Positions 1 through 29,502 of a stretch of 64,000 nt of DNA are shown piece by piece. The notes under the pieces were generated by a model that did no database searches, was not told where the DNA came from, and saw only the letters and a list, made by a program, of their open reading frames with translations. Positions within the stretch are counted from its first letter, which is position 1. Every line of letters begins with the position of its first letter. The translations under genes were made by a program, and so were the position numbers. The stretch comes from a virus, in the IMG/VR virus record IMGVR_UViG_3300031963_009547. The stretch is one strand, 5' to 3'.

Positions 1-147
1 TTCTTTTTCGTATTTAGTTTCTGCTATTATATATGCTTTAACCGCCTCTTCTTCACGTACATCAAAGTAATTATTATTTTTTACTTTTTTTTCCGTCTTT
101 TTCTCTTCGTATGTAACTTCTGTTATAGTTGCAGACGATATAGTCAT
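1..147 (-). CDS. 5' part of a probable phage sigma-factor-like protein (runs off the window)
   Basis: Not in ORF track. Manual translation MTISSATITEVTYEEKKTEKKVKNNNYFDVREEEAVKAYIIAETKYEKE; its ATG overlaps the TAA of the upstream GT2. The NYF..EEEAV..Y start resembles N-termini of large-phage gp55-like sigma factors (recall only). Confidence 0.45.
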   Translation of the reverse strand, partial: MTISSATITEVTYEEKKTEKKVKNNNYFDVREEEAVKAYIIAETKYEKE

Positions 148-953
148 TAGTTTTCTTGTGGTTCATATTTTATATTTCTATCCATGGTGAAGAAATGTTC
201 TTTTTTTGCTGATTCAATCCAAAAAGAAACTTCATCATCAGTAATTGAATTTTGACCATTTTTATAACTCCAAAAGATGGAACCCTCTCTAAAATTCATG
301 TGCTTATACCCAATTCTAGGGATTGTCATAATCTGAGCTGAATTGTAAGTTAGTCTTAACAAAAACTCATAAACAAATGTTAATTTGAACGAAGATTTAA
401 ATCCACCATTGTCAGAGTAAGTTGATTTTTTAATTACCATTCCACTTGTTTGAAAGTTTTGGTAGTTCATTAATACGTCATTTGTTAAATAACCTATTTC
501 TGAATTTAAACTCGCAGCAAATGTCGCCTCATTTGTAAAACCAACAAACATACCCTTTTCATCAGTATCAACAACTAGTGGTAAAAATGCATCAACTTCA
601 GGGTAAGACTCGATAAATCTTTTTACATTTTTAAACCAAATAGTAGAATACTCATCATCAAATTCTAAAATTGAAATATATTCACCATTTGAATTCTCAA
701 CACCTAAGTTAACTTGAGTACTAAAATCTGTCTTACCTTTATTTTCTACAAAATTTACAGTTAGACCACTGTAATCAAATTTATTTAATACTTCTTTTAA
801 ACCATCCTCATCAGAATGTACTACGATAACTTCTAAAGGACTTGTATGTTGAATTTGAACAGACTTAATTGCTCTTTCATAAAATGTTTCAAAATCCCTT
901 TGTTTAGATGAATTAATTGGGATTATTACTGATACGTTTAGATTATTTTCCAT
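147..953 (-). CDS. glycosyltransferase family 2 (GT-A fold)
   Basis: VSVIIP start, EVIVV, NLGVENSNGEYISILEFDDEY (DxD-like region). Confidence 0.85.
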   Translation of the reverse strand: MENNLNVSVIIPINSSKQRDFETFYERAIKSVQIQHTSPLEVIVVHSDEDGLKEVLNKFDYSGLTVNFVENKGKTDFSTQVNLGVENSNGEYISILEFDDEYSTIWFKNVKRFIESYPEVDAFLPLVVDTDEKGMFVGFTNEATFAASLNSEIGYLTNDVLMNYQNFQTSGMVIKKSTYSDNGGFKSSFKLTFVYEFLLRLTYNSAQIMTIPRIGYKHMNFREGSIFWSYKNGQNSITDDEVSFWIESAKKEHFFTMDRNIKYEPQEN

Positions 954-954
954 G

Positions 955-2022
955 TTATTTACTTTCTTCTGTTACATTTAGTTTATCCAATTGTTCTTGG
1001 AATGCGTTAAGTCTTGAGGTAAAGAATTCTTCAAAAAGTTCCAATACTTTTGACTCGAATTTATTTTTGTTTTGATAGTTTGATGATGTTGTAGACATAT
1101 TCTCATAAAGTGTTTCTGAAATATTATCTTCCAACCAATTTTGAATGAAATTTGCAACAACGTCAACAATTTCGTTAAATTGATTAGTCCAAACACCATT
1201 CTCTTCATTCATCCATTCAGGTACCATATTAGGTACTTTTGCAATAACTGGTGTTCCGCTTACCATTGATTCCAATGGGTAGGTACCAAATGATGACTCA
1301 TTATCAACCCATACACTTAAAAATGACTCCTTTAAGAATTTAGAAAAATCACTGATAGAAATACCTCTCATATCTCTAAAAGTAATCCATCTATATTGTG
1401 GATATTTCAAATAGAACGTTTTAATAATTTTTGCAGTGTCCCTTTGGTCTCTTGTATGAATTGAAATAATAGGTTTAGATGGTTTTTCTTTTTTAGAAAA
1501 AACCTCATCAATATAAGGTTCTAAAACATCAATACTTACATTTTTCATTACTTCTGAAATATATTCTTTTTGTTTTTCAGAAGTAGTTATTGCTTTATAA
1601 AATCCTAATTGAGGCCATGTAACACCCGGAGCTAAAGTTTCCAACATATGGTCATATGCCTGACATAAAACTATTTTACCACAAGGTAAGTTTTTAATTT
1701 GTTCCATAACGTGACCATAAAGTTCCGGTAATACAATCATATCTTCAGGTGAAATAGATAAGTTTTGACCGTCGATAGACTGATGTGGTAACTCCATATA
1801 TTTTTCATTCAACCACGAAGAAACACCTTCATAATCTGTTGTTTCGTGAATTATAATTGGATTATATCCTGAATTTTTTAAGGTTAGTGCCATATCATAG
1901 ATATATTTAATACTAGCCTTTGGGTTACCTTTTGTATCTTGTACTAAAAAATAAATTCTAGCCGTTTTTTCTTTAAGGTTATTAACTGAACCCTCAATCT
2001 TTTTTATTTTTTCTAAATCCAT
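955..2022 (-). CDS. GT-B fold glycosyltransferase-like protein
   Basis: ESSFGTYPLESMVSGTPVI resembles the GT4 E-x-FG-x-P-x-EAM-x-x-G-x-PVI motif. Confidence 0.7.
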   Translation of the reverse strand: MDLEKIKKIEGSVNNLKEKTARIYFLVQDTKGNPKASIKYIYDMALTLKNSGYNPIIIHETTDYEGVSSWLNEKYMELPHQSIDGQNLSISPEDMIVLPELYGHVMEQIKNLPCGKIVLCQAYDHMLETLAPGVTWPQLGFYKAITTSEKQKEYISEVMKNVSIDVLEPYIDEVFSKKEKPSKPIISIHTRDQRDTAKIIKTFYLKYPQYRWITFRDMRGISISDFSKFLKESFLSVWVDNESSFGTYPLESMVSGTPVIAKVPNMVPEWMNEENGVWTNQFNEIVDVVANFIQNWLEDNISETLYENMSTTSSNYQNKNKFESKVLELFEEFFTSRLNAFQEQLDKLNVTEESK

Positions 2023-2025
2023 TTT

Positions 2026-2307
2026 TTAAAATTTTTTGATTATTTTATTTAATAATAAAGTATTAAAAGAAATTTTGAATGGTATTGATAAATCTTTAGT
2101 ACTATGAATACCCAAATTTTCATCCACACCTTCTCTTTCCGATAGGACAATTTCCATTAATAACTTAAATGTTTCATATCTTGTTACGCTAATTTGTTCA
2201 TTTTCAGTGTCGCCAGATGGTACCGCAATTTTTGAACTATTTATACTTACTTGTGTTTCTAATTCGTCCACATCAAAGTAGTAATTCTCACCCCAAAGTT
2301 GTATCAT
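2026..2307 (-). CDS. hypothetical protein
   Basis: 93-aa ORF in the coupled operon, overlapping its upstream neighbour. Confidence 0.7.
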   Translation of the reverse strand: MIQLWGENYYFDVDELETQVSINSSKIAVPSGDTENEQISVTRYETFKLLMEIVLSEREGVDENLGIHSTKDLSIPFKISFNTLLLNKIIKKF

Positions 2308-2956
2308 TCTCTAATTTTTTTATTATTTCATCAAAGTCTCCCAACTTTTCTATTTTATAATCACACTCAATACTTACGTTATAGTCAGTGAGATATTGGA
2401 TTGTAGTTTTATGTTGTGGTACCTTAGTTAATATATTAGGATTTGCAGTTAATAAGATATCTATAGTATCCCACATATTATCTAAAGTTGAGTTTGAATA
2501 GAATTTAATATTTTCTATTAAACATCCAAATTTAGATAAGAAAAATAAAGTCGCCGGTTTTGATTTACCAATTTCATCAGATACAACATAAATCTCATAT
2601 TTGTCACGATTGTTTAAATAAAAATCATTTAAATCATTAAATGTAAAAGTTTCAGTAGAACCTGCATGACCAAACAATTGCATAGGGAAATCTTCAAACA
2701 TAAAATCATATAATTCCTCATCAGATTTGAATTTAAAATGGTTTTTTAATTCAAATGTATTGATAGGTTCGATAATTTCATAAATAAATTCGTCCTCAAC
2801 CTTATCAATTGATGTGTTACCAGACATATCCATGGTAAATGTTTGATTTGAATTTTCAGACTCATAATTTTCAATCATATGTTTTTCATATAATTGTCTA
2901 AACTTGCCAAATGTATCCCTTAAAACACCATTAACTTCAATCCCTATTCTCTTCAT
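2288..2956 (-). CDS. 5'(3')-deoxyribonucleotidase-like HAD protein with degenerate motif I
   Basis: N-terminal IGIEVNGVLRD corresponds to IGIDxDGVLxD, with both Asp replaced. Confidence 0.6.
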   Translation of the reverse strand: MKRIGIEVNGVLRDTFGKFRQLYEKHMIENYESENSNQTFTMDMSGNTSIDKVEDEFIYEIIEPINTFELKNHFKFKSDEELYDFMFEDFPMQLFGHAGSTETFTFNDLNDFYLNNRDKYEIYVVSDEIGKSKPATLFFLSKFGCLIENIKFYSNSTLDNMWDTIDILLTANPNILTKVPQHKTTIQYLTDYNVSIECDYKIEKLGDFDEIIKKLENDTTLG

Positions 2957-3674
2957 CGTATTTTTCTAATATTTTACTGATTAATGGGTTTCTTACGTTT
3001 TTAGCGTTTCTAAAATCATACACACCCACATCATTTATATTTTTGAACCTTTGTAAAGCATCATAAAGACCTGATTGTTTTTTGTCTTTATAACGGTCAG
3101 TTTGTTCTAAATCTCCTGATATAAAGAACTTACTATTAAACCCTATCCTTGTCAATAGTAATTTCATTTGATTTGGAGTTGCGTTTTGAGCTTCTTCAAA
3201 AATTAGAATGGAATTGTCGATATTCATACCTCTCATATAGGCTAAAGCAAATACCTCAATTATTTCAGCTTCTTTAAGTTTTTCTCTCGCCTCTTTACCT
3301 ATAATTTTATTTAATAGGTAATATGAAGGAAAAATGTAAGGGTCTAATTTTTCTTCCAAGTTACCTGGTAACGAACCCAGTTTTTCTTCAGCTTCAACTG
3401 CTGGTCTAACGATGATTAGTTTTTCATAAGAATTATTAGGGTCCATTAGTAGGTCAACCGCCGCTCTCATGGAAATAAAACTTTTACCAACACCTGCGGG
3501 ACCTGAACATATTGTGATTTGATTAGACATCAATATGTCATAATACTCTTTTTGATTGTCTGATAAGAATTTATTTTTTTGTTTTCTTTTAATAACTGAA
3601 TTTATGTAATCCTTTTTTGTGATTGTTTTAGGTATTACTGGTTCTTCTGGTTGAGTTATTTTTTTTCTTGTCAT
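2937..3674 (-). CDS. phoH: PhoH-family ATPase
   Basis: GPAGVGKS Walker A, RPAVEAEEKLGSLPG, AYMRG, EEAQN, LLTRIG, SGDLEQTD. Confidence 0.95.
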   Translation of the reverse strand: MTRKKITQPEEPVIPKTITKKDYINSVIKRKQKNKFLSDNQKEYYDILMSNQITICSGPAGVGKSFISMRAAVDLLMDPNNSYEKLIIVRPAVEAEEKLGSLPGNLEEKLDPYIFPSYYLLNKIIGKEAREKLKEAEIIEVFALAYMRGMNIDNSILIFEEAQNATPNQMKLLLTRIGFNSKFFISGDLEQTDRYKDKKQSGLYDALQRFKNINDVGVYDFRNAKNVRNPLISKILEKYDEENRD

Positions 3675-3682
3675 TTAATTAT

Positions 3683-4660
3683 TTATTTATTTTTATAGTA
3701 ATCCATCCAATACTCAATCATCTCATCTAACATAGATTCAAAAGTATATTTTGGATTCCAATTTAATCCATCTCTCAATTTTGATGAATCTCCTTTTAAA
3801 TTATATAACTCTTCAGGTCTGAAATGTTTCTCATCAATTACTATGTATTCACTATAATCTAATCCTAATGAACTAAATACGTAACTACATAAGTCTTGTA
3901 CCGAATGTGATATTCCTGTAGAACAAACGTAGTCTTCAGGTTTATCTGATTGTAGCATCAACCACATTGCTTCGACATAATCTTTAGCATGTCCCCAATC
4001 TCTTGTTGCATCTAAATTACCAATATTTAATTTTTCTTGTAAACCTAAACTAATTCTAACTGCTGCTTTAACAACTTTATTTGTTACAAAGTTTGTCCCT
4101 CTTCTTGGTGACTCGTGGTTAAACAAAATACCATTCCATATTTTCATACCATATGAATTGCGATAGTTTCGACAAATGTTGTATGAAAATACCTTAGCAC
4201 ATCCATAAGGCGATACTGGATTCATCGGTGTTGTTTCTCTTTGAAACCCATCTTCATCGATAGTATTTCCAAACATTTCAGATGACGATGCTTGGTAAAT
4301 TTTAATATCTTTATTTAATAGTTTTACCGCCTCCAATAAATTAAGAGTTCCAAGACCCGTTACATTTGCGGTGTAGATTGGTTGGTCAAAAGATATTCTT
4401 ACATGTGATTGTGCGGCCAAATTATAAATTTCAATTGGTTTAACTTCTTGTATTACTCTTGTAAGTGAAGATAAATCAGTTAAATCCGCATAGTGTAAAT
4501 GTAATTTATCGAATACGTCATCTAATCTACTTGTTTGATTTTCCGATACTGAATTTCTCTTTAATGTTCCGTGAACTTCATATCCTTTTTCTAAAAGAAA
4601 TTCTGCAAGATACGAACCATCCTGTCCGTTTATTCCTGTTATTAGTGCTACTTTTTTCAT
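3683..4660 (-). CDS. gmd: GDP-mannose 4,6-dehydratase
   Basis: ALITGINGQDGSYLAEFLL, YNLAAQSHV, YQASSSEMFG, PVSPYGCAK, LFNHESPRRG, RDWGHAKDYV. Confidence 0.97.
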   Translation of the reverse strand: MKKVALITGINGQDGSYLAEFLLEKGYEVHGTLKRNSVSENQTSRLDDVFDKLHLHYADLTDLSSLTRVIQEVKPIEIYNLAAQSHVRISFDQPIYTANVTGLGTLNLLEAVKLLNKDIKIYQASSSEMFGNTIDEDGFQRETTPMNPVSPYGCAKVFSYNICRNYRNSYGMKIWNGILFNHESPRRGTNFVTNKVVKAAVRISLGLQEKLNIGNLDATRDWGHAKDYVEAMWLMLQSDKPEDYVCSTGISHSVQDLCSYVFSSLGLDYSEYIVIDEKHFRPEELYNLKGDSSKLRDGLNWNPKYTFESMLDEMIEYWMDYYKNK

Positions 4661-5805
4661 TCGTTAATTATTGATACAATAGTTTGGATTTCATCAAAAG
4701 TCAATCCTTGATGGTTTGGTATGTAGAACCCAAACTTGTTTATTAATTCACAATTTTTTAATTCAACAGGTCCGTATTTTTTTACCCACATCGGTTTTTT
4801 AGACATGTCTCCAGCAATTAAAGGTCTAACCTCAATATTTTTTTCTAATAGTTTATTAACTATTTCATTTCTTCTTTCATTAATAATTGGGTATGCAAAG
4901 TTCGATACAAAATCACCTTTGTTTTCACCAACCATAATTTTATTATCACCAATTAGTGATTTATATTTTTTGAAATTTTCATTTCTTTTTTCACTATACC
5001 CGTCTAATTTATCAATTGCCATTAAACCAATAAATGCTTGTAAATCTGTTGCTCTTAAATTAAAACCCGGTAAATAAAAAGTATATAAAGAGTCAAACTC
5101 ATTTACATTATTTTCTTTTCTTAATTTTTCTTGTATGTGTGTAGGTAAATCCCTATCCCAACCGTGACTTCTCATCATTAATAATGAATAATAAAAATCC
5201 TCATCGTTTGTATTTATGAACCCACCTTCAATTGTGCTTAAGTGATGTCCAAAATACATCGAAAAAAATGATGCAAAACCAAAAGAACCTAAATACTTTC
5301 CTTGATATTTTGACCCCATACTTTCGCAAACATCTTCCAATAGAATTACATTGTATTTTTCACACAGTGAAATTACTTTTTCCATATTAGGAACTAAACC
5401 TAATGGTGAAACTAAAATCATACAAGATGGGTCATTTGTTTTAAACAACTCTTCTAAATGTTCTAAATCACAAGAAAGGTCTTCTAAGTTAGAGTCACAA
5501 AGTATTGGTTCCATACCTAATAACATTGGGGAACTAACATCGGTAGCCCAACTTAATCCAGGAACAACAACTTTGTTATTTTTTAATTTACCGGTGTGTA
5601 ATAATGATGCTAACGCTAAAATAATTGCTGACGACCCGGAATTAACATAGACAGAATATTTCGTACCTATTTTTTTAGCCCATTTTGATTCTAATTCCCA
5701 TGTTAAATCTCCTTTTGTAAGTCTTGGTATTTCATCTTGGTTTAACCATTCTATTAATTTATTGATGTCATTTTTATCAATTGTGTCTTTAACTAACTTT
5801 ATCAT
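4657..5805 (-). CDS. colD: GDP-4-keto-6-deoxymannose 3-dehydratase (ColD-type; DegT/DnrJ PLP fold)
   Basis: LEDVCESMG; FSMYFGHHLSTIEGG with His where aminotransferases have the Schiff-base Lys; RSHGWDRDLP; LPGFNLR; sits between gmd and an fcl-like gene. Confidence 0.8.
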   Translation of the reverse strand: MIKLVKDTIDKNDINKLIEWLNQDEIPRLTKGDLTWELESKWAKKIGTKYSVYVNSGSSAIILALASLLHTGKLKNNKVVVPGLSWATDVSSPMLLGMEPILCDSNLEDLSCDLEHLEELFKTNDPSCMILVSPLGLVPNMEKVISLCEKYNVILLEDVCESMGSKYQGKYLGSFGFASFFSMYFGHHLSTIEGGFINTNDEDFYYSLLMMRSHGWDRDLPTHIQEKLRKENNVNEFDSLYTFYLPGFNLRATDLQAFIGLMAIDKLDGYSEKRNENFKKYKSLIGDNKIMVGENKGDFVSNFAYPIINERRNEIVNKLLEKNIEVRPLIAGDMSKKPMWVKKYGPVELKNCELINKFGFYIPNHQGLTFDEIQTIVSIINE

Positions 5806-6703
5806 AATATGAATTATATACTAATTTTATACCTTCACTCAAAGGTGTGAATTCAAAATTTGGAAACAAATTTTTAAATTTATCTATTGAAACGTCTTTT
5901 CTAAATTGACCGTTTGGTTTTGTTGTGTCCCATTCAATTTTTATATTTTTACTATCGGTCACATCTAAAGCAATTTCAGCCATTTGTTTAATTGAAAGGT
6001 TTTCTTCAGTTGCAACATTGAAGCTTTCAGTTACATCTTTTTCAATTGTCTGTTTAATTATTTCTGCAAAATCACCAGCATACATGAATTGTCTTAGAGG
6101 TGTCCCATCACCAAAAAGAGTAATCTCACCTGAATTGTTATTTTTAGCGTAATTAATTTTTTTAATTAATGATGTTAAAAAATGACTTTTATTTTCGTCG
6201 TCCTTATCTTCAATACCATATAAGTTACAAGGAATTAAATATTGATAATTTAAATTATACTGAAGATTATATGCATCTATTTGTGCTCCCATTGAACGTT
6301 TAGAATAACCATAAGAGAAATTGGTTATAGTTGGTGGTCCCTCATGTAACATGGTTTCATCCATTGGGTATTTTCTTGCAACATCAGGGTATATACAAGT
6401 ACTTAAAATACCTATGAATTTTTTTACTTTGAAAATTCTTGAGTATTCGATTAGTAGTGTATTCATTAAAACATTCTGTGTAAAATATTCGGCAGGATGG
6501 TTAATATTATCAATTATACCACCAACCCTTGCTGCTAAATGAACTACTATATTAGGTTTATGTTTTAAAAACATTCGTTTAACACCTTCTTCCGTTGTTA
6601 AATCATAATCATTAGATGATATATAAATTGCTTCTGGTAATATCTTTTTTAAATATTTCCCAACTAATCCTGAACCGCCCGTTACTAATATTTTACTGTT
6701 CAT
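5789..6703 (-). CDS. GDP-L-fucose/GDP-L-colitose synthase (epimerase-reductase, Fcl/ColC family)
   Basis: ILVTGGSGLVG, HLAARVGGI, LSTCIYP, YGYSKR (YxxxK), PCNLYG, GDGTPLRQF. Confidence 0.9.
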   Translation of the reverse strand: MNSKILVTGGSGLVGKYLKKILPEAIYISSNDYDLTTEEGVKRMFLKHKPNIVVHLAARVGGIIDNINHPAEYFTQNVLMNTLLIEYSRIFKVKKFIGILSTCIYPDVARKYPMDETMLHEGPPTITNFSYGYSKRSMGAQIDAYNLQYNLNYQYLIPCNLYGIEDKDDENKSHFLTSLIKKINYAKNNNSGEITLFGDGTPLRQFMYAGDFAEIIKQTIEKDVTESFNVATEENLSIKQMAEIALDVTDSKNIKIEWDTTKPNGQFRKDVSIDKFKNLFPNFEFTPLSEGIKLVYNSYYDKVS

Positions 6704-6998
6704 TTTTAAAAAAAACTAAATCGTTTATTGCTTTGTCATCTACGATTAAATCGTAGTGTAATTTTCTACCAACATATAAATCATGGTATTTTACCCCCCA
6801 AGTTTCCAATTGATTTTTTGTTAAATTAAACCAATCAATTCCTGTTGTTGCCCCTCTTGCTGTGTCTATTATTATATGATTACCATCGTGATATAAATCA
6901 TTTAATTTTTTTATTCTTTGGTGAAAGGGTTCTGCCTTTTCGTAATCACCATATGTGTTAGTACATAAAGTACCATCTAAATCAAAACAATAAATCAT
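6693..6998 (-). CDS. small HAD phosphatase (capsule-biosynthesis type)
   Basis: FDLDGTL motif I, TARG motif II, VDDKA motif IV. Confidence 0.85.
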   Translation of the reverse strand: MIYCFDLDGTLCTNTYGDYEKAEPFHQRIKKLNDLYHDGNHIIIDTARGATTGIDWFNLTKNQLETWGVKYHDLYVGRKLHYDLIVDDKAINDLVFFKNEQ

Positions 6999-7939: not shown

Positions 7940-7946
7940 TTTTATT

Positions 7947-8777: not shown

Positions 8778-8790
8778 TTTTTAATATTTT

Positions 8791-10901: not shown

Positions 10902-10906
10902 TTTTT

Positions 10907-16862: not shown

Positions 16863-18085
16863 TTGAATGGTGATTCTATTAAATTATTTTTAATCATTTC
16901 TCTATTGATTAGGTATAAAACGTTTTTAGGTTTTAAATGTATATCATCTACATAATATATTTCTTTAGTCGTGTCTCCATCAACTAAGTAATCATATATA
17001 CTTAAAAATTTGTAACCTTTTTTTGAACACTCTTCCTTAACTCTTTGATTAAAATATTCTTTAAATTTTCTTCTTTCGCTATATGTACCTCTTGGTTTAT
17101 CAAACGCTTCTGGATTTTCTCTATAATAGAATATAAACGGCTCTTCTTTTAATTCCGGTGTTACCGAAAATAAAATTATATTTTTATTATATAAATTGTC
17201 AATAAATTGAAAATACCTATCAATAATTTCATCTATTAATTCAATATAATCTTTGTTTTGTTCGTCCATATTTTTTTTTACTTGAGCTCTACAATCTATT
17301 TCACCAAAACAAATAAGAATATTTTCATCATAAGATACATTATTAATTATTTCATATACATTTGGTTTGTTAATTAAGTTGTATGCTAAATAAGGTCCGA
17401 ACCTATAGGTATGATAAGAATCATATACAATTAATTCATTCATATTAAATAAACTTTCTTTATTAGAAAAAATACTAATATGACTATCACCAAAACAATT
17501 TATTTTTTGTATTTTTTTCTGCGTCCACCCTTCAAAAATAAATTCGTAATTAAAAATAGTATCATAATATACTGATACCTTTTCCAAAATTGAATTTCGT
17601 TTTTCAACATATCCGTCGACAAACCCGTGAAATTGTACCAAATAATTTTCAAAGACATTTAATTCAGGTATTGATGACAGATATTCTAATAATCTATACT
17701 CTTCCCCTTCAATATTAATTTTTATTAAATCTACTTGAAAAATTTGCTCCTCGAATAAAAATTCTTTTATAGATTTAAGTTTTATTTTTTCAGTTCTGTC
17801 GTTTTGTGAATATATTGATGATGCATCACCATTTGTGCTTATATATTCATCTCTTGTGATATCTGACAAACCAAAATTATAAACTTTTATATTTTCATTA
17901 TTTTTATATCTATGTACTATCTTTTCATAGAATGATAACACAGGTTCAAATATATATATTTTTGGATTTTCGTATCTGTCAATACAAATTTGAGCAAAAT
18001 CACCCATATACCCACCAACGTCAAAAATTACAGAATCTTTTTTTAATTCAAATTTCATTACATCATTCCAAGTTGGATTTCCCAT
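16859..18085 (-). CDS. FkbM-family methyltransferase fused to an SGNH-hydrolase domain
   Basis: N-half FDVGGYMG, IFEPV, IKINIEGEEY, VQFH; C-half FGDSH, FGEIDCR, DDIHL. Confidence 0.8.
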   Translation of the reverse strand: MGNPTWNDVMKFELKKDSVIFDVGGYMGDFAQICIDRYENPKIYIFEPVLSFYEKIVHRYKNNENIKVYNFGLSDITRDEYISTNGDASSIYSQNDRTEKIKLKSIKEFLFEEQIFQVDLIKINIEGEEYRLLEYLSSIPELNVFENYLVQFHGFVDGYVEKRNSILEKVSVYYDTIFNYEFIFEGWTQKKIQKINCFGDSHISIFSNKESLFNMNELIVYDSYHTYRFGPYLAYNLINKPNVYEIINNVSYDENILICFGEIDCRAQVKKNMDEQNKDYIELIDEIIDRYFQFIDNLYNKNIILFSVTPELKEEPFIFYYRENPEAFDKPRGTYSERRKFKEYFNQRVKEECSKKGYKFLSIYDYLVDGDTTKEIYYVDDIHLKPKNVLYLINREMIKNNLIESPFK

Positions 18086-18088
18086 TTT

Positions 18089-18862
18089 TCAAATTTTTAT
18101 CAATTTATTAAAATACACGTCACTTGTATCTATATTTTTTTTAGCGGGTCCAAACCATTTTTTTGGTCCTATCACTATTTTATTTTCATTCTTATTTAAC
18201 CAAGCCCCCCACCATGAAAATGACGAATTCGCTATAATATTATTATAACATAAAGACATCAAAATTAAATCTTCGTAATCTTTATTATTTTCACAATATA
18301 TAACATTATCTAAAAAGTTAAAATTTTCTTTACACCACCTAATATCATCTGAGAAAATAAAAAAAGTTTTATCAGAACCAACTATAGATATTGCTTCTTT
18401 ATAATATTCTAAACTTTGTGTTGGGTGGTGGTCTAATAGATTTAAATAATCACCTCTTCTTACATGTATAGAACAAGTGTTTTCATGTAATACTTCTTTA
18501 TATTTTTCACGTATGTTATTAACAACTTCATCACAATAAAAAAAATCTAAAATTTTATTTCTGTTGTGTTTGAAATATTTTTCAGATTGAAAATATCCGT
18601 GAAGTGATGTTGGTAACATAAAATCAGGTATGGGTGAATAGTGAAAATGTGGTTCATTATATATTTGACTCGTAACAAAATTACCATCTAATATTAAATT
18701 TTTCAAAATATTGTCCATGTAAACGTCAATTGGTTTATGGACTACTTGGACATTATTTGGGTTGATAACAAATTTTTCACCCAAATCTAAAGATTTAGAA
18801 TATGCTGTTGCGATTTGAAAAAGATAGTTCCCAAGACCACCCATTAAATAACAAGAAACCAT
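18089..18862 (-). CDS. GT11 alpha-1,2-fucosyl/colitosyltransferase
   Basis: MGGLGNYLFQ, GYFQSEKYF, SIHVRRGDYL, FSDDIRWC, IIANSSFSWWGAWL. Confidence 0.93.
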   Translation of the reverse strand: MVSCYLMGGLGNYLFQIATAYSKSLDLGEKFVINPNNVQVVHKPIDVYMDNILKNLILDGNFVTSQIYNEPHFHYSPIPDFMLPTSLHGYFQSEKYFKHNRNKILDFFYCDEVVNNIREKYKEVLHENTCSIHVRRGDYLNLLDHHPTQSLEYYKEAISIVGSDKTFFIFSDDIRWCKENFNFLDNVIYCENNKDYEDLILMSLCYNNIIANSSFSWWGAWLNKNENKIVIGPKKWFGPAKKNIDTSDVYFNKLIKI

Positions 18863-18863
18863 A

Positions 18864-19679
18864 TTATAAGTTTTCTTTTATGAATTTATACACATGTTCG
18901 TCAGGTAGTAAAAAGTTTTTACACTTATCAAAGTTTTCTCTAATAACATCTAATTTTGAGTTATAAAAATCTTCATTACAGTCGTTTAAAATTGTTTCTA
19001 ACTCATCCATATTATCAAATATTAACATACCGTCAGTATTGAAAAAATCACCAATAGAAGGACACCCCCAATATATAGGAATCGTTCCTGTTGCAAAACA
19101 ATCAATTAGTTTTTCTGTAAACCAATAATCTCTTTTACAATTTTCAATAACAACTGAAAAACGATAATCTTTAAGACCATCAATTTTAAAATTAATAGGG
19201 TTATAACTTCTACCGAACACATCCATTTTATCACCAAACTTTTGAATTACTTCGTGTCTTAATCTATGCCCGTCAGTGAATGTTTTATTAGATGAAATGA
19301 CTGAAATGTTTTTACTTTTATCGTAAACTTTTTGTTCTTCTTTCGGTATCCAACAACACCCAAAAGGAATGAATTTTGTATTGTAATCTAAATCTAATAA
19401 TGTTTTTTCATGTGTTAAAATGTAATCAAACTTCATTAGATTATTTCTAACGTAATCGTAATGTTGAGGTGCAACACAAACAGGCTCAATCAACCAAGCG
19501 ATTTTATTTTTAGATGGTGGTAAATTTGATGTTAAAAAATTATCAGTAATAACTAAATTTTCAGTATTATTTGGTTGGGTTCTTTCCCACTCAAAATTTT
19601 CTGACTTTTGAAAGTCAGAACAATAACCTAAAATAGAGTGTGAAAAAGTATTATCTGCAATTTTTATTTTTTGTTTCAT
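18864..19679 (-). CDS. GT10 alpha-1,3-fucosyltransferase-like protein
   Basis: YRFSVVIENCKRDYWFTEKLIDCFATGTIPIYWG matches the GT10 signature. Confidence 0.88.
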   Translation of the reverse strand: MKQKIKIADNTFSHSILGYCSDFQKSENFEWERTQPNNTENLVITDNFLTSNLPPSKNKIAWLIEPVCVAPQHYDYVRNNLMKFDYILTHEKTLLDLDYNTKFIPFGCCWIPKEEQKVYDKSKNISVISSNKTFTDGHRLRHEVIQKFGDKMDVFGRSYNPINFKIDGLKDYRFSVVIENCKRDYWFTEKLIDCFATGTIPIYWGCPSIGDFFNTDGMLIFDNMDELETILNDCNEDFYNSKLDVIRENFDKCKNFLLPDEHVYKFIKENL

Positions 19680-20401
19680 AATATCAATTTTTCGTATGGT
19701 TTAAATGTTCTGATTTTTTGAGTAATTGTTTGAACTTTAGGTAAATTAACCTTATGGTCATTTAATGGATTACTTTCATTATAAATGTAATTTATGTCAT
19801 TCATAAATCTATAATGTTCAATACCACTCATTTCAGCCATTGGGTACATAAACGATAAATCGCCAGCAACCCCCCAATAATTTCCATATTCATCTTTTAA
19901 ATCTTCCTGATTAATTTTTCTCCACAAAAATACTCTCCAAGTTCTTAGATGAGTTAATGTAAAAGTTTCGTTTCTAATATTATCAAAACTTGTATATGGC
20001 CTTGCAAACCCAGGTCTACCATCATGATATCTAAAACTACCATTCGCTAACCATACATCATCTGAATTATATGTATCAACAACTCTTTGGAATGTTTTTG
20101 AATCCGGTAACCAATCGTCACCATCAACCTCAACACAAATGTCGTTATCTTCAATATCAAACTCACCTCTTATTACTTGGTCATAATTTCCCGGTTGAAA
20201 CATTTTAGTTTTATTTTCAATTAAAACAAATCTATCATCACCTTTAATAAAATTCTTTATTTTTTCAACCGTTCCATCTGTTGATAAATCATCAGTGATA
20301 TAACATTTAAAATTTTTATAAGTTTGAGTCATAATTGTTGCTAAGGACCTCTCAACAAAATTCTCACAATTATATGTGGTAGTTAAAACTATTAGTTTCA
20401 T
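19676..20401 (-). CDS. glycosyltransferase family 2
   Basis: TTTYNCENFV, DDLSTDGT, VDGDDWL, GDLSFMYP. Confidence 0.88.
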   Translation of the reverse strand: MKLIVLTTTYNCENFVERSLATIMTQTYKNFKCYITDDLSTDGTVEKIKNFIKGDDRFVLIENKTKMFQPGNYDQVIRGEFDIEDNDICVEVDGDDWLPDSKTFQRVVDTYNSDDVWLANGSFRYHDGRPGFARPYTSFDNIRNETFTLTHLRTWRVFLWRKINQEDLKDEYGNYWGVAGDLSFMYPMAEMSGIEHYRFMNDINYIYNESNPLNDHKVNLPKVQTITQKIRTFKPYEKLIL

Positions 20402-22038
20402 CGGTTTAAAATTTTAATATATTCTTCTTTTATTTTTTTTGCAACTTCGATTGAGTTGAACTTTTCTACATCTGAAGGTACTTCATGTCTTTCTTTACTA
20501 AGAATATCACCTTTATCGTCTACTTGATAAATCCATCCTGGTTTGCCACATAACCACCCTTCTATCGTAGTTCTACCAAGTAAAATACCTGCAGTTTCCG
20601 TACAGTTTTTAACGTACTCCTCAACTTTATTAGTTGCTTGGAAATGTTTAACGTGTGAACTATTTAATAGTTCAGGTAAGTAATTTGATTTGTTTTCACC
20701 AACTAACCACAACTCTTTACCGATAGATTTTGAATACTCAACCAAATCTCGAATTGTTTTTTCTCTCAAATAATCAATAGTACCAACAAATAAAACATAT
20801 GGATATGTTTTTGTATTCACGTTATTAAATCTATTTGTGTCGATTGGATTATATATTACATCTGTGTTAGTTTCATCTATGTTAAAATTATCAACAACAT
20901 GTTTTTGAATTTCAGGTCGTATACAAATATACTTTTTAATTGAGTCGTGAATAAACGGATTTTCTAATTCAATCACCTCTGAATGTATTGTTGAAATTTT
21001 TGGGGTGTTTGGATACATATCACATACTCTTTGTGATATTGGATTATGTTGTACGTGAATGATATCAAAATTTACGTCTGACATCTTGTACAACATATTA
21101 GGTTGGCTTTGAACAAAACCTTGCGGTGTGTTCATTCCCCATTTTCCATCACCTAATTTATAACCAGGTGGGTTAGAGAATGGTAAAGTTTTAATTCCCT
21201 GTTGATTTGCTAATGTAGATAACGGACCATCAATATCTGAAAGAACCGTAATATCACAATTTAATTTTTTAAGACCCCTTGCAAGTTCATAAACATACAT
21301 CTCTGAGCCAGTAAAAGTTTTAAAGAATAGTGATGATAGTAATACTTTAATTGGTGACTCTAATGTGAGATTTCTTTTAATTTTAACGGGAAGAAGTTCT
21401 TTGTGTTTTTCTGCAAATTTAATTCTGTTTTGTTCCCATTCGTCATTTGTTTGACCTATTGATTTGTGAGTTACTCTAACATCGTAGATAATTCCAATTT
21501 TTACATCTTCAATAAAGTTTCTAAATGAAAAATCCACATCATAAAAGTGAAAACCTTTTATTTCTTCATTAAAAGTTTGTTTAATATTTTTCTTATTTAA
21601 AACAATGAAAAGACCATCGACTAAAACCACGTCTTCGATTTGGTTACCTAAACTTGCAGAATATTTTGATTCCCATTTTTTACCTTCGTGTTCATGATTA
21701 ACAATACCTTTCATTTTTGAAAAGTCTTCCCACCATTTTGCAGACTCAGGTAGTTGTGTTGAACCAGCAAGACCTAAAATTCCGTACTCAGGACTTCTTT
21801 TGAAATGTTTTAATATTTTACTACCCCAATTCTTACTATCGAAATAGATATCATCGTGACACAACACAACAATGTCATTTGTCGCTTGTTCTAAAATCAT
21901 ATTATAAGCTTCAGGTAGTGAATACTTACCCTCATTTTCTATTGGGATTATTTGTGGGTTTGGTACGCCGCACGTTTTCTTCAATAGTTCCACAAAACTA
22001 TCGTCAATTTTTCTTGTTGAAAATCCTATTGTAATCAT
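20398..22038 (-). CDS. two-domain glycosyltransferase (GT-A N-domain plus GT4-like GT-B C-domain)
   Basis: N: YNMIL, VLCHDD, VDGLF, FHFYDVDFS; C: TGSEMYVYELA, DIIHVQH, YNPID, GRTTIEGWLCGKP. Confidence 0.82.
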   Translation of the reverse strand: MITIGFSTRKIDDSFVELLKKTCGVPNPQIIPIENEGKYSLPEAYNMILEQATNDIVVLCHDDIYFDSKNWGSKILKHFKRSPEYGILGLAGSTQLPESAKWWEDFSKMKGIVNHEHEGKKWESKYSASLGNQIEDVVLVDGLFIVLNKKNIKQTFNEEIKGFHFYDVDFSFRNFIEDVKIGIIYDVRVTHKSIGQTNDEWEQNRIKFAEKHKELLPVKIKRNLTLESPIKVLLSSLFFKTFTGSEMYVYELARGLKKLNCDITVLSDIDGPLSTLANQQGIKTLPFSNPPGYKLGDGKWGMNTPQGFVQSQPNMLYKMSDVNFDIIHVQHNPISQRVCDMYPNTPKISTIHSEVIELENPFIHDSIKKYICIRPEIQKHVVDNFNIDETNTDVIYNPIDTNRFNNVNTKTYPYVLFVGTIDYLREKTIRDLVEYSKSIGKELWLVGENKSNYLPELLNSSHVKHFQATNKVEEYVKNCTETAGILLGRTTIEGWLCGKPGWIYQVDDKGDILSKERHEVPSDVEKFNSIEVAKKIKEEYIKILNR

Positions 22039-22655
22039 GATATTCCTGTTGAACCAAATCCGTTATCATTTCTATCTTTTGATTCAATATCTTTAACCTC
22101 AACTAAATCCACCCAATTACCATTTAAAACAGGACAAAGAACCGCTTGAGCAACTTTCTGACCTTTTTCTATTTTTATAGATTGGTTTGTGGTGTTAAAA
22201 AGAATAACTTTTATTTCCCCTTGATATCCACTATCAATTGTACCTGGTGAGTTTAAAACGAATAATCCTTGATTTAATGCTAGACCGCTCTTGGACCTGA
22301 TTTGCACTTCATATGAATCTGCAATATCTAATCTTATCCCTGTTGGTATGAGTGCTCTTGAATTTGCACCAATAACAACTTCTTCGGCTGCTCTTAAATC
22401 AAAACCTGAATCTGACGGATATACATAACTTGGATTAACATTATCTGAAGTATTAACAAACTTAAGAGTTGCTTTAGTTATTTGTGTTGAATACTCATCA
22501 TTCATCGACTCAAAGTGTTTATTTAAATCATCGGTACTTAGACCCATTTTTTTTAAAAACTCTTCAGGATTGTTCATATCAATCTCACCTAAGTGAGATT
22601 GTAAGTCTTTAATTGTTTTGAGTTGTTCTCTTATTTCTTTTATTCCTTTAAACAT
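22035..22655 (-). CDS. dut: trimeric dUTPase with a ~60-aa N-terminal extension
   Basis: DSGFDL, RSKSGL, GTIDSGYQGEI, VAQAV, RNDNGFGSTG (motifs I-V). Confidence 0.95.
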   Translation of the reverse strand: MFKGIKEIREQLKTIKDLQSHLGEIDMNNPEEFLKKMGLSTDDLNKHFESMNDEYSTQITKATLKFVNTSDNVNPSYVYPSDSGFDLRAAEEVVIGANSRALIPTGIRLDIADSYEVQIRSKSGLALNQGLFVLNSPGTIDSGYQGEIKVILFNTTNQSIKIEKGQKVAQAVLCPVLNGNWVDLVEVKDIESKDRNDNGFGSTGIS

Positions 22656-22656
22656 G

Positions 22657-23385
22657 TTATTTAAGAGATTTTAATTGTAAAATTGCGTTTATTAATACAT
22701 CTACATCTTTTTCACAGTATTCTGCTATTTCCTGTAGTCTATTATGGTTCCAATATGCTTCATGAACCATTCCACCATTAATTGGTCCGTCTTTAGGTGT
22801 AGGGATATCTAAACAAGTGCACATTAAATCTAATGAACCAATCGCGGTGTATGCACCATACTGCCAAATCTCTTTCGTGTCGATTGCCTTTACTTCCCAA
22901 GGTTTAGTATCATATGAGGGGAGAATCTTTGAGGGCATAATTCCATTGATAATCATTCGTTTTGCCAACATAGGGATGTCAAAGTTTTTAAGGTTATGAC
23001 CACAAAGATAAAAATCCAATTTATGACATCTATTCAAAAGGTCTCTAACCTCTAATAACAACTTGTGTTCGTCATCGTTAGAAAACGTTTGTTTTTTAAT
23101 TTCACCATTTTCTAAAACAAATGCCATAGACACACAAACTATTTTCGCAAACTCAGGAACTAAAGCAGTTCGTTTTGCATAAACATCATTCATTTTTTGC
23201 ATTTCTTCTTCGAGACCATTTGTTTCAACATTATCCTCTGGAAATCTTTTTAGGAACCAATCGAAATATTTAACAAATTGTTCTGCAATTTTAGGATGAC
23301 TTTCTTGACAAGAACTCCAGTCTTTACATAGACCAACAGTTTCTATATCTAAAAATAAAATTTTGTTAATAGGTATGTTTATCAT
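22657..23385 (-). CDS. stand-alone DEDDy 3'-5' exonuclease (PolB-exo-like)
   Basis: FLDIETV, GHNLKNFDIP, YCEKDV. Confidence 0.88.
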   Translation of the reverse strand: MINIPINKILFLDIETVGLCKDWSSCQESHPKIAEQFVKYFDWFLKRFPEDNVETNGLEEEMQKMNDVYAKRTALVPEFAKIVCVSMAFVLENGEIKKQTFSNDDEHKLLLEVRDLLNRCHKLDFYLCGHNLKNFDIPMLAKRMIINGIMPSKILPSYDTKPWEVKAIDTKEIWQYGAYTAIGSLDLMCTCLDIPTPKDGPINGGMVHEAYWNHNRLQEIAEYCEKDVDVLINAILQLKSLK

Positions 23386-24596
23386 TTTACTAAGGATTTA
23401 TATAATTCTGCTCTATTTTTTGTGACAACATTTAAGTCGTAAGTATCTTTTACTGTTTCATATAATTTTTGACCTAAATCATATGCGAAGTTAGGGTTAT
23501 CAATTAACTTTTTCATATACTTTGACCAATCACTATGATTTCTTGCTTCATCTACAAGTAACGCATTACCATCTGTAAATTCACCTTTATTAAGTGCGTG
23601 TTTCAAATCAATAGTATAAGGACCGACATTAGATGCTATAATTGCCTTTTTATAAAATCCTGCCTCAATTACTTTAAGTTGTGATTTAACTCTATTGAAT
23701 ACATGATTTTTGATTGGTGCTAAAGATACGTCAAACCATTTGTAGTTGTTAGCATAACTTGTTACTGGTTTTGTCCAAACACGATTATAGAATGTTGAAG
23801 TGTTTGATTTATACTCTTCTTCTGTAAACTTCATTAAATAATCTTTATGATTTTCATCAACAAGTTTATAGTTGTCCGTGAATATTTCCTCATAACGAGC
23901 CCAAACAGTTTCTTCAGGTTTGATTTGTCTTTGTTTTTGTTCACCTGTTTGTTGATTTATTTCGGTTACGGTTCCACGAATATCAAATCCACAAAGATAC
24001 ATACTAAATTTATCCTTCAATGGGGTTAATTTATTCATTGTACCATCTAAAAGTTTCAAGTCGTGTAAGTGTGAAGAACCACCTAACCAACCAAATCTTA
24101 ATCTATCTGACGGCTCGGTTTTTGCATTAAATTGAGATTCTTTTGGGTTAATTGCGTTAGGTAAAACAAAAACACTTTTATTGTATTTTGAAATTTCTGT
24201 TGCAAATACTGAAGTAGTAGTTGTTATGTGTTGAGCAACTTTAAGGTTCTCTATTATTTTTTTATGGAGATTAGTTTGAATTACCATTTGATGTACAGGA
24301 TGTTCTTTTGTCGGTAACCAATAGTCGTCTAAGTCCATGATAGTAACAACACCAAGGGAGTTAAGTTTTTTGATTAGATTAACTGAATTATCGTACTCGT
24401 GAGCGATAGTCCTATGAAAATGAACTATGTCGTATTGTTTCCAATAATTTAAATCATTTATCTTTGGTTCATAATCAATATCGACATGAAATTCATCTGA
24501 GTGGTTATTTTGTAACATAACGTGTGGGTCCACACTTCTAAATTTACCCACTCCTGTTTTGTCAGATGGTAGTACTAAAACTTTTATTTTACTCAT
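23382..24596 (-). CDS. GT-B (GT4-like) glycosyltransferase
   Basis: GVGKFRS, MDLDDYW, VLPNAI, FGWLGGSSHLHDL, DVSLAPI, FNRVKSQLKVIEAG. Confidence 0.82.
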   Translation of the reverse strand: MSKIKVLVLPSDKTGVGKFRSVDPHVMLQNNHSDEFHVDIDYEPKINDLNYWKQYDIVHFHRTIAHEYDNSVNLIKKLNSLGVVTIMDLDDYWLPTKEHPVHQMVIQTNLHKKIIENLKVAQHITTTTSVFATEISKYNKSVFVLPNAINPKESQFNAKTEPSDRLRFGWLGGSSHLHDLKLLDGTMNKLTPLKDKFSMYLCGFDIRGTVTEINQQTGEQKQRQIKPEETVWARYEEIFTDNYKLVDENHKDYLMKFTEEEYKSNTSTFYNRVWTKPVTSYANNYKWFDVSLAPIKNHVFNRVKSQLKVIEAGFYKKAIIASNVGPYTIDLKHALNKGEFTDGNALLVDEARNHSDWSKYMKKLIDNPNFAYDLGQKLYETVKDTYDLNVVTKNRAELYKSLVK

Positions 24597-24634: not shown

Positions 24635-24663
24635 AAAAAATCCACCCCTTTTGAGAGTGGATT
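24635..24663 (-). terminator. intrinsic terminator between the late small-gene cluster and the sugar operon
   Basis: Minus strand AATCCACTCTC-AAAA-GGGGTGGATT followed by a T-run. Confidence 0.75.
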
Positions 24664-27176: not shown

Positions 27177-27190
27177 TGAGCTTTTTACCT

Positions 27191-27216: not shown

Positions 27217-27227
27217 CATAAAAAAGT

Positions 27228-29492: not shown

Positions 29493-29502
29493 AATTAAAA
29501 AA

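Follow-up and report, generated by a model that had tools for sequence, protein, structure and literature searches.

A phage-borne 24-kb glycan operon with conserved arms and a variable centre in a moraphage-like jumbo phage, possibly acting on virion proteins

The moraphages, jumbo phages from aquatic environments that are uncultured, have genomes of 200-307 kb with a PolB and no RNA polymerase, and their predicted hosts are Bacteroidota; their description reports a histone-like protein, Hc1, and four core orthogroups of putative glycosyltransferases, whose role is left open there (Perez-Hernandez et al. 2025, Arch Virol, PMC12619734). A precedent for virion glycosylation is provided by mycobacteriophages (Freeman 2023, as cited in PMC12619734), and clade-specific clusters of 6-33 genes serve the virion fibrils of Megavirinae (PMC10117803). 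The 24-kb glycan operon described here is genuine and phage-borne. It lies in a window of 64 kb, the whole stretch of DNA that was analysed, and its source is a large, abundant, uncultured phage, probably with a freshwater Bacteroidota host.

The ORF listing of the window gives 29 ORFs at 147-24596, all on the minus strand, and all 28 junctions between them are overlaps or gaps of 1-13 nt, with 13 overlaps of the 4-nt ATGA type and the remainder of 7 to 22 nt; the initial annotation had likewise read about 29 co-oriented, tightly joined genes. The phage context that it named (sheath, tube, PolB and UvsX) was recovered in the same window, together with hub and SSB genes, the UvsX assignment being to a UvsX-like gene. 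The hairpin and T-run immediately upstream of g1, also present in several relatives, divide the block from an operon at 27176-24684. The neighbourhood of the island is of early type (dut, exonuclease, phoH) and lies behind this terminator. An ORF cut off by the start of the window (1-147) is homologous to a 248-aa protein of a relative, for which neither Pfam nor PDB gave a match.

The block is composed of two conserved arms flanking a cassette slot, an architecture newly observed here (Table 1). The first arm comprises the GT4-like g1, an exonuclease, a dUTPase and the GT2+GT4 fusion g4, and the second phoH, two unknowns, a GT-B enzyme and a GT2. Of the phage genes described earlier as interleaved, phoH, dut and the exonuclease stand and the sigma-like gene does not, a sigma signal being absent for g26 in Pfam, PHROGs, Atlas and a PDB profile search, and for g27 in Pfam and PHROGs. 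For g26 there is an NT5C-like lead instead.

Table 1. Coordinates of the glycan operon and adjoining features in the window.
Feature	Position	Strand	Assignment and evidence
754-aa protein	27228..29492	+	~40-residue (Pro-Thr)n tract near C-terminus; adjoins island, not an operon member
Hairpin + T-run	24639..24663	-	Terminator-like; immediately upstream of g1
g1	23382..24596	-	GT-B, GT4-like glycosyltransferase; conserved arm; phrog_7162, E 1.7e-45
g2	22657..23385	-	PolB-exo-like 3'-5' exonuclease; conserved arm; PF10108, 47.7 bits
g3	22035..22655	-	dUTPase; conserved arm; PF00692, 94.9 bits
g4	20398..22038	-	Two-domain GT2 (GT-A; PF13712, 94.8 bits) + GT4 (GT-B; PF13439, 49.8 bits); conserved arm and left edge of slot
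Cassette slot	3683..20401	-	Between g4 and phoH
g5-g7	18089..20401	-	g5 GT2, g6 GT10-like, g7 GT11; semi-conserved, highly divergent trio
g8	16859..18085	-	FkbM methyltransferase (PF05050, 30 bits) fused to SGNH domain
g9	16134..16862	-	Single-domain CMP-ulosonate (sialyl-type) transferase; PF01973, 62.7 bits
g10-g16	10907..16137	-	Ulosonic-acid module: g10 SAM methyltransferase, g11 CMP-transferase (PF02348, 104 bits), g12 class III aminotransferase, g13 VOC/glyoxalase-fold, g14 TIM-barrel (AP_endonuc_2), g15 PtmA-like SDR, g16 GmhA-like SIS isomerase
g17, g18	8791..10901	-	g17 GT8 (PF01501, 46.8 bits); g18 UDP-galactopyranose mutase, UDP-Galf route (PF03275, 277.7 bits)
g19-g21	6693..8777	-	g19 short NeuB-type synthase, 276 aa, without C-terminal domain (PF03102, 208 bits; TIGR03569, 226 bits, under cut-off); g20 unassigned, glycosyltransferase lead from Atlas only; g21 small HAD-phosphatase-like protein (phrog_1238, E 4.6e-25)
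g22-g24	3683..6703	-	g22 Fcl/ColC-like reductase, g23 ColD 3-dehydratase, g24 Gmd; right edge of slot
g25-g27	2026..3674	-	g25 PhoH (PF02562, 212 bits), g26 NT5C-like lead, g27 93 aa; conserved arm
g28, g29	147..2022	-	g28 GT-B glycosyltransferase, g29 GT2 (PF00535, 40.6 bits); conserved arm; glycan genes end here

Routes to three sugar donors are encoded, namely GDP-L-colitose, UDP-galactofuranose and a CMP-activated ulosonic acid. These are the three announced by the initial annotation, its GDP-deoxyhexose being narrowed to GDP-L-colitose given the presence of Gmd, ColD and an Fcl-like SDR. The Gmd scores 414.6 bits on TIGR01472, for which the cut-off is 415 (PF16363, 408 bits), and the DegT-fold protein g23 has ColD as its best PDB match (2gms, E 1.7e-55) and keeps a His-His in place of the catalytic (Schiff-base) Lys, its GHH aligning with the SHH of ColD; the first of these His differs in the deposited ColD variant 3b8x. 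The Fcl-like SDR g22 reaches 191.7 bits, the cut-off being 500, and its position beside ColD suggests the ColC epimerase/reductase. For the ulosonic acid, the g19 NeuB and g11 CMP-transferase scores both lie under the NCBIfam equivalog cut-offs, and none of the canonical UDP/GDP-GlcNAc-derived precursor enzymes (NeuC, PseB/C/H/G, LegB/C/H/G) is found among the 29 proteins; in their place are the GmhA-like isomerase, the SDR, the TIM-barrel, the class III aminotransferase, the VOC protein and the HAD phosphatase. An equivalent gene set surrounds short NeuB genes in diverse bacteria and archaea, and the ulosonic acid is probably aminated and methylated. The transferases, estimated earlier at about 9-10, amount to 10 domains in nine proteins (g1, g4 with two, g5, g6, g7, g9, g17, g28 and g29), with g20 as a further candidate. 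The trio g5-g7 are candidate colitosyl/fucosyl-type transferases, the GT10 score of g6 (26.3 bits) being barely above the cut-off, and g8, whose SGNH matches are below cut-off, is predicted to serve glycan O-methylation/O-acyl tailoring.

The arms and the slot recur in 80 related loci, taken from 80 contigs that were fetched from a set of at least 197 matching stretches, so that the block does occur in related phages, where the initial annotation had proposed to look for it. Homologues of g1 and g2 are found in 73 and 77 of these loci, respectively, and those of g5-g7 in 48-57, at 31-82% identity; the g8 family is in no other locus of the 80 at the clustering threshold, with a single 27%-identity match. 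In the 80 loci taken together, 204 protein families occur in the slot, arranged in 60 architectures, and its length ranges from 4.0 to 16.7 kb, whereas the arm transferases are conserved across the entire clade. The four large relatives (contigs of 281-321 kb) have the same conserved arms, with g28 and g29 in all four, and a variable centre: two of them, G001 and G002, carry different glycosyltransferases, methyltransferases and epimerases in the slot. Cassette-level indels are also seen, since g17 and g18 are a cassette inserted within the ulosonate module and are missing from another relative whose flanking module matches. The middle part is exchanged between related phages, much as in bacterial O-antigen loci. 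In G001 (281 kb, 96% complete), the five ORFs following the g29 counterpart have no Pfam match.

We propose, at a probability of about 45%, that this is a phage-encoded cytoplasmic glycan locus of a moraphage-like jumbo phage whose glycans are built on virion proteins. In our inferred scheme, which covers the acceptor, the sequence in which sugars are added and the biological benefit, priming may be performed by the GT60-like polypeptide-type transferase of the lineage, the conserved transferases would assemble a shared inner glycan in the cytoplasm, on virion-protein tracts rich in Ser/Thr, either ahead of virion assembly or while it proceeds, and the cassette enzymes would append strain-specific outer sugars. 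Here the slot supplies GDP-L-colitose, UDP-galactofuranose and CMP-ulosonic acid with matching transferases of GT11 and GT10 types, a GT8, a GT2 and a CstII/Maf-fold enzyme, as well as O-methyl/O-acyl tailoring. If this is true, related phages differ in virion 'serotypes'. We consider this reading the best because the arms are conserved in the clade, G001 has no polytopic membrane protein (no ORF with more than three hydrophobic segments), a GT60-like gene is present and a (Pro-Thr)n tract lies beside the island. The GT60-like transferase (PF11397) occurs in all four large relatives at 188-200 bits, and in G001 its gene is coupled to that of an HtrL_YibB protein, with fibre genes of Pro-Thr-tract, SprB-repeat and collagen-like types on either side. 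The Pro-Thr proteins beside it and the 754-aa protein of the window, a candidate glycan acceptor, both belong to phrog_15511. In cultured jumbo phages the GT60-like homologues lie outside the structural module, which counts against virion proteins as acceptors.

A virion-protein glycan had already been put forward in the initial annotation. Its premise of a phage-borne locus is upheld and the locus is self-contained for cytoplasmic glycan assembly, but the supporting logic, drawn from a Maf-like enzyme, a promoter-type motif and the lack of export genes and membrane spans, is not compelling. The Maf-like protein g9 is a PF01973 member. In the flagellin Mafs, enzymes of ~600 aa, PF01973 is flanked by flagellin-binding domains that are absent in g9, a 242-aa catalytic domain alone (AF2 pLDDT 91.5). 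The glycan-capping sialyltransferase CstII fits at least as well (E 5e-8, versus 7.5e-7 for Maf 5mu5), and the g9 model does not specifically indicate a protein acceptor, a further point against the virion-protein reading. The TATTTAT string, thought to be shared by g1 with structural genes, is present but overlaps the ATG itself, is found upstream of g1 in 3 of 29 relatives, i.e. is not conserved, and precedes 87 of 318 ORFs of every class in one relative. It is therefore not a mark of structural genes and the argument for a virion role fails, leaving g1 without a well-placed conserved motif. As had been stated, the block contains no priming phosphoglycosyltransferase, flippase, ABC exporter or polymerase; a ligase is absent too, and no convincing hydrophobic span was detected in any of the 29 proteins, the highest hydrophobic window (g9) corresponding to a buried helix and strand in the model. 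However, peripheral GT2, GT4, GT10 and GT11 enzymes without membrane spans routinely use lipid-linked acceptors, and the enzymes for priming, flipping and ligation could come from the host, so the absence of spans is not compelling for a soluble acceptor.

It can be hypothesised, as a serious if rather unlikely rival, that the soluble or peripheral phage transferases and the sugar routes remodel the host envelope by acting on undecaprenyl-phosphate-linked intermediates or on the LPS core, the host performing priming, flipping and ligation, with a surface change that would, for example, block superinfection or prevent adsorption of progeny to debris. The GT2, GT4, GT10 and GT11 families, colitose, Galf and ulosonate are of the type found in O-antigen and capsule loci, the variable centre between conserved flanks has the same layout, and the genomic neighbourhood is early-type. 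In addition, the best Foldseek matches of the g1 model (AF2 pLDDT 81.8) are PglA, GlgM, HepE, PimB' and MshA, and the closest-fold GT4s (PglA, PimA/B') act on lipid-linked acceptors. The enzyme families, the neighbourhood and the fold of g1 weigh against virion proteins, and envelope modification is the usual reading of the cyanomyovirus sets of P-SSM2 and S-SCSM2R (13 glycosyltransferases including GT10 and GT11; PMC12801897). With no membrane machinery in the block, nor any polytopic protein in the 96%-complete relative, the phage glycan would nevertheless need to fit the machinery of each host, and arm transferases that are core in a wide clade are unusual for an accessory host-modification function. 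We know of no envelope change by a lytic phage that has been experimentally demonstrated.

The locus itself does not fix the acceptor, and another soluble one (a protein of phage or host outside the virion, a small molecule or a glycolipid), used to take over the host, to evade defences or to release an oligosaccharide, is conceivable but improbable. The closest PDB match of g28 is a soluble GT-B acting in the extension of free oligosaccharides (8xsg, E 3.9e-8), and Agt, a homologue of that enzyme, extends glycopeptides in the cytoplasm. Some ten transferase domains together with three rare donors nevertheless imply a long, exposed and variable glycan, a poor match to a regulatory or small-molecule role, and no gene for a carrier or a biosynthetic scaffold was identified. 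Glycosylation of modified phage bases, T-even style, is very improbable, even if the transferases are interleaved with dUTPase, exonuclease and PhoH genes and phage transferases produce a variety of glycans on DNA (Pyle 2024, as cited in PMC12619734). No match to the T4 alpha- or beta-glucosyltransferases (PF09198/PF11440-type) appears among the 29 proteins at E <= 0.01, nor in the fold neighbours listed for g1. A dCMP/dUMP hydroxymethylase is absent in the 96%-complete relative, whose only thymidylate-synthase-family protein is a true ThyA (PDB thymidylate synthases at E about 1e-71, no hydroxymethylase among the best 60); no gene of this family was found in the other three large relatives, which are incomplete. 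To our knowledge, neither GDP-colitose, UDP-Galf nor CMP-ulosonate is a DNA-sugar donor. A chimeric phage/bacterial join has a negligible probability: the bacterial-type genes are slightly lower in GC than the structural region of the window (0.24-0.31 versus 0.29-0.36) and IMG/VR labels one relative as a provirus, but translational coupling is tight across all junctions, the architecture recurs in contigs of up to 321 kb, and g4 is found in at least 197 IMG/VR contigs at 56-90% identity and g1 in at least 7990 protein clusters.

Wzx/Wzy O-antigen loci, such as those of the colitose-containing E. coli O55/O111 types, carry gmd-colD-colC and GT11-type transferases as a variable set between conserved flanks. 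The present locus shares this arrangement of sugar and transferase genes, but has no priming transferase, Wzx, Wzy, Wzz or ligase and is carried by a virus. We know of no sugar-nucleotide pathway encoded by the mycobacteriophage glycosylation systems. In these, phage transferases have been shown experimentally to modify capsid and tail-tube proteins (Freeman et al. 2023, as cited in PMC12619734), with few transferases only, two being reported for phage Maravista. The cyanomyoviruses P-SSM2, S-SCSM1 and S-SCSM2R (PMC12801897) are large aquatic myoviruses with up to 13 glycosyltransferases (GT10, GT11, GT2, GT1), NDP-sugar epimerases and a CMP-ulosonate (Kdo) route; they belong to another lineage, with no sequence relationship detected, whereas in the phage described here the genes form a single coupled operon whose centre is swappable between conserved arms, and the sugars are colitose, Galf and a NeuB-type ulosonate. 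It resembles the moraphages in features of its relatives, namely jumbo size (281-321 kb), Hc1 (PF07432, in all four relatives tested), four core/arm transferases and Bacteroidota signals (SprB repeats in relatives); neither a cassette slot nor the sugar routes are described in the available text of that work (PMC12619734). Giant viruses (Megavirinae fibrils, PMC10117803; chloroviruses, PMC9614988) likewise cluster sugar pathways and transferases for bacterial-type rare sugars, with clade-specific content and cytoplasmic synthesis without lipid-carrier or export machinery; they have eukaryotic hosts and chemically demonstrated virion glycans. As in giant viruses and mycobacteriophages, the transferases of this locus are virus-encoded and come without export machinery, and their variation, with 60 architectures in 80 loci, is much finer-grained than in giant viruses.

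The operon of glycan genes consists of conserved arms around a hypervariable centre, which is the main new result of this analysis. By ORF calling, its 29 genes, numbered g1 to g29 in transcription order, are joined at all 28 junctions by an overlap or a gap of 1-13 nt, 13 of the overlaps being of the 4-nt ATGA type; the co-oriented operon described in the initial annotation is confirmed and extended. The 20 nt 5' of the operon genes are A/T-rich, and no Shine-Dalgarno (GGAGG-type) motif is evident in them by eye. The gene assignments collected in the table were obtained by Pfam, NCBIfam, PHROGs and PDB searches. No credible membrane span was found in any of the 29 proteins, as had first been noted, and several searches returned no sigma signal of any kind, so that the supposed sigma-like gene of the block falls away. 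The product of g26 is a conserved 222-aa protein with an IGIExNGVLRD motif at its N-terminus; this resembles the DxDGVL found in deoxynucleotidases of the NT5C type, although neither Asp is retained, and Atlas points only weakly to NT5C, through 14% of one cluster. The gene that follows g29 overlaps the g29 stop and runs off the window start, and no Pfam or PDB match was obtained by sequence for its 248-aa homologue in the related contig G001.

Features of the operon, the rest of the window and related phage loci (window positions unless another contig is named)
Feature	Position	Strand	Assignment or content
Glycan operon	147-24596	-	29 ORFs
g1		-	GT-B transferase
g2		-	PolB-exo-like exonuclease
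g3		-	dUTPase
g4		-	GT2+GT4 fusion
Slot between g4 and phoH	3683-20401	-	variable stretch
g5		-	GT2
g6		-	GT10-like
g7		-	GT11
g8		-	FkbM methyltransferase and SGNH, fused
g9		-	PF01973 transferase
g10		-	SAM methyltransferase
g11		-	CMP-transferase
g12		-	class III aminotransferase
g13		-	VOC protein
g14		-	TIM-barrel
g15		-	PtmA-like SDR
g16		-	GmhA-like isomerase
g17		-	GT8
g18		-	UDP-galactopyranose mutase
g19		-	short NeuB
g20		-	no family assignment; glycosyltransferase lead from Atlas
g21		-	HAD-phosphatase-like
g22		-	Fcl-like reductase
g23		-	ColD
g24		-	Gmd
g25		-	PhoH
g26	2288-2956	-	no assignment; beside phoH
g27		-	no assignment
g28		-	GT-B
g29		-	GT2
Gene after g29	1-147	-	
754-aa protein	27228-29492	+	(Pro-Thr)n tract
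TATTTAT(A) intergenic sites	27160-46742		several
Superoxide dismutase	34268-35356	-	Fe/Mn type
Giant ORF, 2045 aa	46757-52894	+	after tail genes
Giant ORF, 2429 aa	53201-60490	+	after tail genes
GT60-like gene and HtrL_YibB-family gene	G001 179799-181843 (L093:1333-3377)		translationally coupled
Thymidylate synthase, 430 aa	G001 244976-246268 (L089:1486-2778)		
Inserted mutase gene	L005:888-1939; L112:8931-9982		between dUTPase gene and g4

The arms, g1-g4 and g25-g29, are all found in the four large related phage contigs (G001-G004) at 51-93% identity, whereas the content from g4 to phoH varies among them. G003 keeps most of the window's slot genes with some swapped, the 11-kb slot of G004 includes genes for Gmd, ColD and GT11, and the slots of G001 (7.5 kb) and G002 (10.4 kb) carry gene sets quite unlike the window's, with GT2, GT92-like, GT32-like and GT4 transferases, FkbM methyltransferases, UDP-GlcNAc 2-epimerase and RmlD-like enzymes. 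At least 197 viral contigs were recovered by a search with g4, and in a comparison of 80 loci (79 fetched loci and the window) the 839 slot proteins fell into 204 families, with 79 singletons, and the slots showed 60 distinct gene orders. In the fetched loci, where slots above 10 kb are not visible whole, the complete ones are 4.0-8.9 kb long, against 16.7 kb in the window. Comparison of the loci indicates that slot modules move as units: in L107 the ulosonate module is 87% identical to the window's at the nucleotide level, g8 and the g17-g18 (GT8 and mutase) cassette are missing, and g5-g7 are just 37-56% identical. The "conserved" left arm also takes insertions, since two loci hold within it a UDP-galactopyranose mutase gene with 65% nucleotide identity to g18. 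An assembly chimera with bacterial DNA was rejected, given that the block recurs across many assemblies.

Two sugar routes of the slot can be described more closely. The identity of g23 as ColD is firm on sequence grounds, ColD being its top PDB match (E 1.7e-55), with His where the usual Schiff-base Lys sits; these features suggest that the GDP route most likely ends in L-colitose, and the GDP-deoxyhexose donor first proposed is borne out and sharpened to probable GDP-L-colitose. The ulosonate module comprises the GmhA-like isomerase, SDR, TIM-barrel, CMP-transferase, class III aminotransferase, VOC protein, methyltransferase and short NeuB. It recurs as neighbouring genes at 24-58% identity in many bacteria and archaea, among them Lachnospiraceae, Gallionellaceae, Thiobacillus and Nitrosopumilus; in the fetched syntenic sets from unrelated bacteria and Thaumarchaeota (L188-L216), the aminotransferase, VOC and methyltransferase genes are often but not always present. 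This recurrence indicates a widespread cellular pathway acquired by the phage and not a phage invention. The pathway looks like an uncharacterised ulosonic-acid route, no characterised match having been found, and when a bacterial source of the module was sought, just relatives of 37-56% identity turned up, from many phyla, with no recent donor and no clue to the host.

Outside the operon the window is clearly that of a phage, encoding PolB, an SNF2 helicase, a 1070-aa sheath with a Ser/Thr-rich insertion, tube, hub, SSB and UvsX-like proteins, in agreement with the sheath, tube, PolB and UvsX first recognised on the contig. The island is in no cultured relative, as neither tblastn with g4 nor megablast with the block, the latter against 50,697 phage records, gave a match, and the sheath and PolB share only 25-31% identity with those of the closest cultured relatives. 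At least 213 IMG/VR contigs carry PolB at 75-99% identity, one of them (G001) being 281 kb long and rated 96% complete; the g4 search added three contigs of 317-321 kb, and the clade must be very abundant, since metagenomes contain at least 7990 protein clusters for g1 alone. Genome-wide statements about this phage are drawn from G001-G004. The published moraphages are jumbo phages of aquatic habitats that are predicted to infect Bacteroidota and whose core includes four glycosyltransferase orthogroups with a role left open (Perez-Hernandez et al, 2025; PMC12619734). Our phage resembles this group in several features: an Hc1 histone-like protein encoded in all four large relatives, SprB repeats in fibre-region proteins of relatives, genes apparently without Shine-Dalgarno sites, and four conserved transferases.

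Several further observations concern the window and its relatives. The superoxide dismutase, a conserved protein in 78 of the 80 loci, has both Pfam halves at residues 161-351, after an N-terminal extension of ~160 residues, and a 105-aa ORF lies between the two giant ORFs. G002 (IMGVR_UViG_3300042691_055965; 229 kb) is classed as a provirus by IMG/VR, which may be a mislabel due to its bacterial-looking glycan island. The thymidylate synthase of G001, longer than the typical ~265-315 aa, aligns to typical enzymes in two or three separate stretches and probably holds an insertion, such as an intein or homing element.

A terminator-like hairpin precedes the operon upstream of g1; save for this hairpin, scans for sigma-70-type promoters and terminators stayed at chance level. 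The Bacteroidota -7 motif TAnnTTTG shows no enrichment, with 129 copies in the window against 113 expected, and is found with a -33 partner 5' of just 6 of the 318 G001 ORFs. TATTTAT lies 5' of 87 of these ORFs (27%; ~10 by chance from base composition), mostly 11-24 nt and in a few cases up to ~50 nt from the ATG; TATTTAT(A) is the T4 late-promoter box in reverse complement. In G001 it precedes ORFs of all classes, small early-looking and structural genes alike, so it was rejected as a mark of structural genes and probably serves this lineage as a general promoter or leader element. The TATTTAT at g1, once taken to link the operon to structural genes, is thus a real but general motif, and no conserved, properly placed copy stands at the operon start.

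We propose, with a probability of roughly 45%, that the glycan is carried by virion proteins, which is the best single reading. A PF11397 "GlcNAc" (GT60-like) transferase, of a family whose characterised members glycosylate polypeptides, is encoded in all four large relatives and in none of 14 control genomes. Its gene in G001, coupled to that of an HtrL_YibB-family protein (as also in L101 and L102), sits among fibre proteins with Pro-Thr tracts, collagen-like sequence and SprB repeats, the last named after the gliding-motility adhesin of Flavobacterium; in the window, a Pro-Thr tract of ~40 residues is found in the 754-aa protein, whose gene lies 2.6 kb from the operon. The GT60-like gene, its fibre-module setting and the Pro-Thr tracts are hints of protein acceptors. 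Homologues at 44-48% identity occur in the cultured jumbo phages XacN1, Xoo-sp13, CM1 and RAS14, and in Xanthomonas phage XacN1 the gene adjoins polymerase, RNase H, carbamoyltransferase and GT9 genes outside the structural module, so the fibre-module placement is lineage-specific and not a family rule. The "Maf-like" g9 is a PF01973 transferase as first read; it is a bare 242-aa catalytic domain whose model (pLDDT 91.5) fits CstII, a sialyltransferase that caps glycans, no worse than it fits Maf, and it was dropped as a pointer to a protein acceptor. The virion reading of the initial annotation remains the likeliest, while its motif argument fails.

It can tentatively be hypothesised, at somewhat less than even odds, that the members of an extremely abundant clade of jumbo phages from aquatic habitats decorate their own virion proteins with glycans resembling O-antigens. 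Assembly would take place wholly in the cytoplasm on Pro-Thr-rich fibre and tail proteins, and strains would swap the outer sugars (colitose, galactofuranose, modified ulosonic acids) via the dedicated cassette slot, giving tailed phages heritable, fast-diversifying "serotypes" selected by hosts, competitors or grazers. Remodelling of the host envelope by the phage enzymes comes second, as a less likely but serious rival; a lipid-linked export route of the phage's own is excluded by the predicted proteome, in which no G001 ORF has more than three hydrophobic segments, whereas host machinery could be used, as enzymes of such families often work peripherally on lipid-linked acceptors. Other soluble acceptors come third and are improbable. 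DNA glycosylation is very unlikely, as no T4-type DNA glucosyltransferase family was matched in the operon proteins, g1 (with no PDB match by sequence) is modelled as a generic GT4 fold that does not reveal its acceptor, and the sole thymidylate-synthase homologue of near-complete G001 is a true ThyA.

For twenty years, big glycan gene sets have been on record from large aquatic phages, routinely under the label "LPS genes"; we know of no established acceptor for them. The present lineage is an unusually clean case, with a very abundant clade, a self-contained operon, conserved transferases as possible handles for reconstitution and dozens of natural cassette variants. Should the glycans be on virions, tailed phages would bear a surface chemistry that diversifies in a way comparable to that of bacterial O-antigens, which would matter for the recognition of hosts, the evasion of defences, losses to grazing and the stability of phages in lakes; should they be on the host envelope, a lytic phage would be using sugars of its own supply to rewrite the host surface. 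In either case it would become clear what such common "auxiliary" gene sets are for. Rare-sugar enzymes could also be drawn from this compact locus, for GDP-colitose and for the putative ulosonic-acid route common to many bacteria and archaea. The system is of the same kind as the "LPS" gene sets of cyanomyoviruses, the glycosylation clusters of giant viruses and the virion glycosylation of mycobacteriophages, of which its arms-plus-cassette layout and the scale of its diversity in a very abundant clade make it a new variant.
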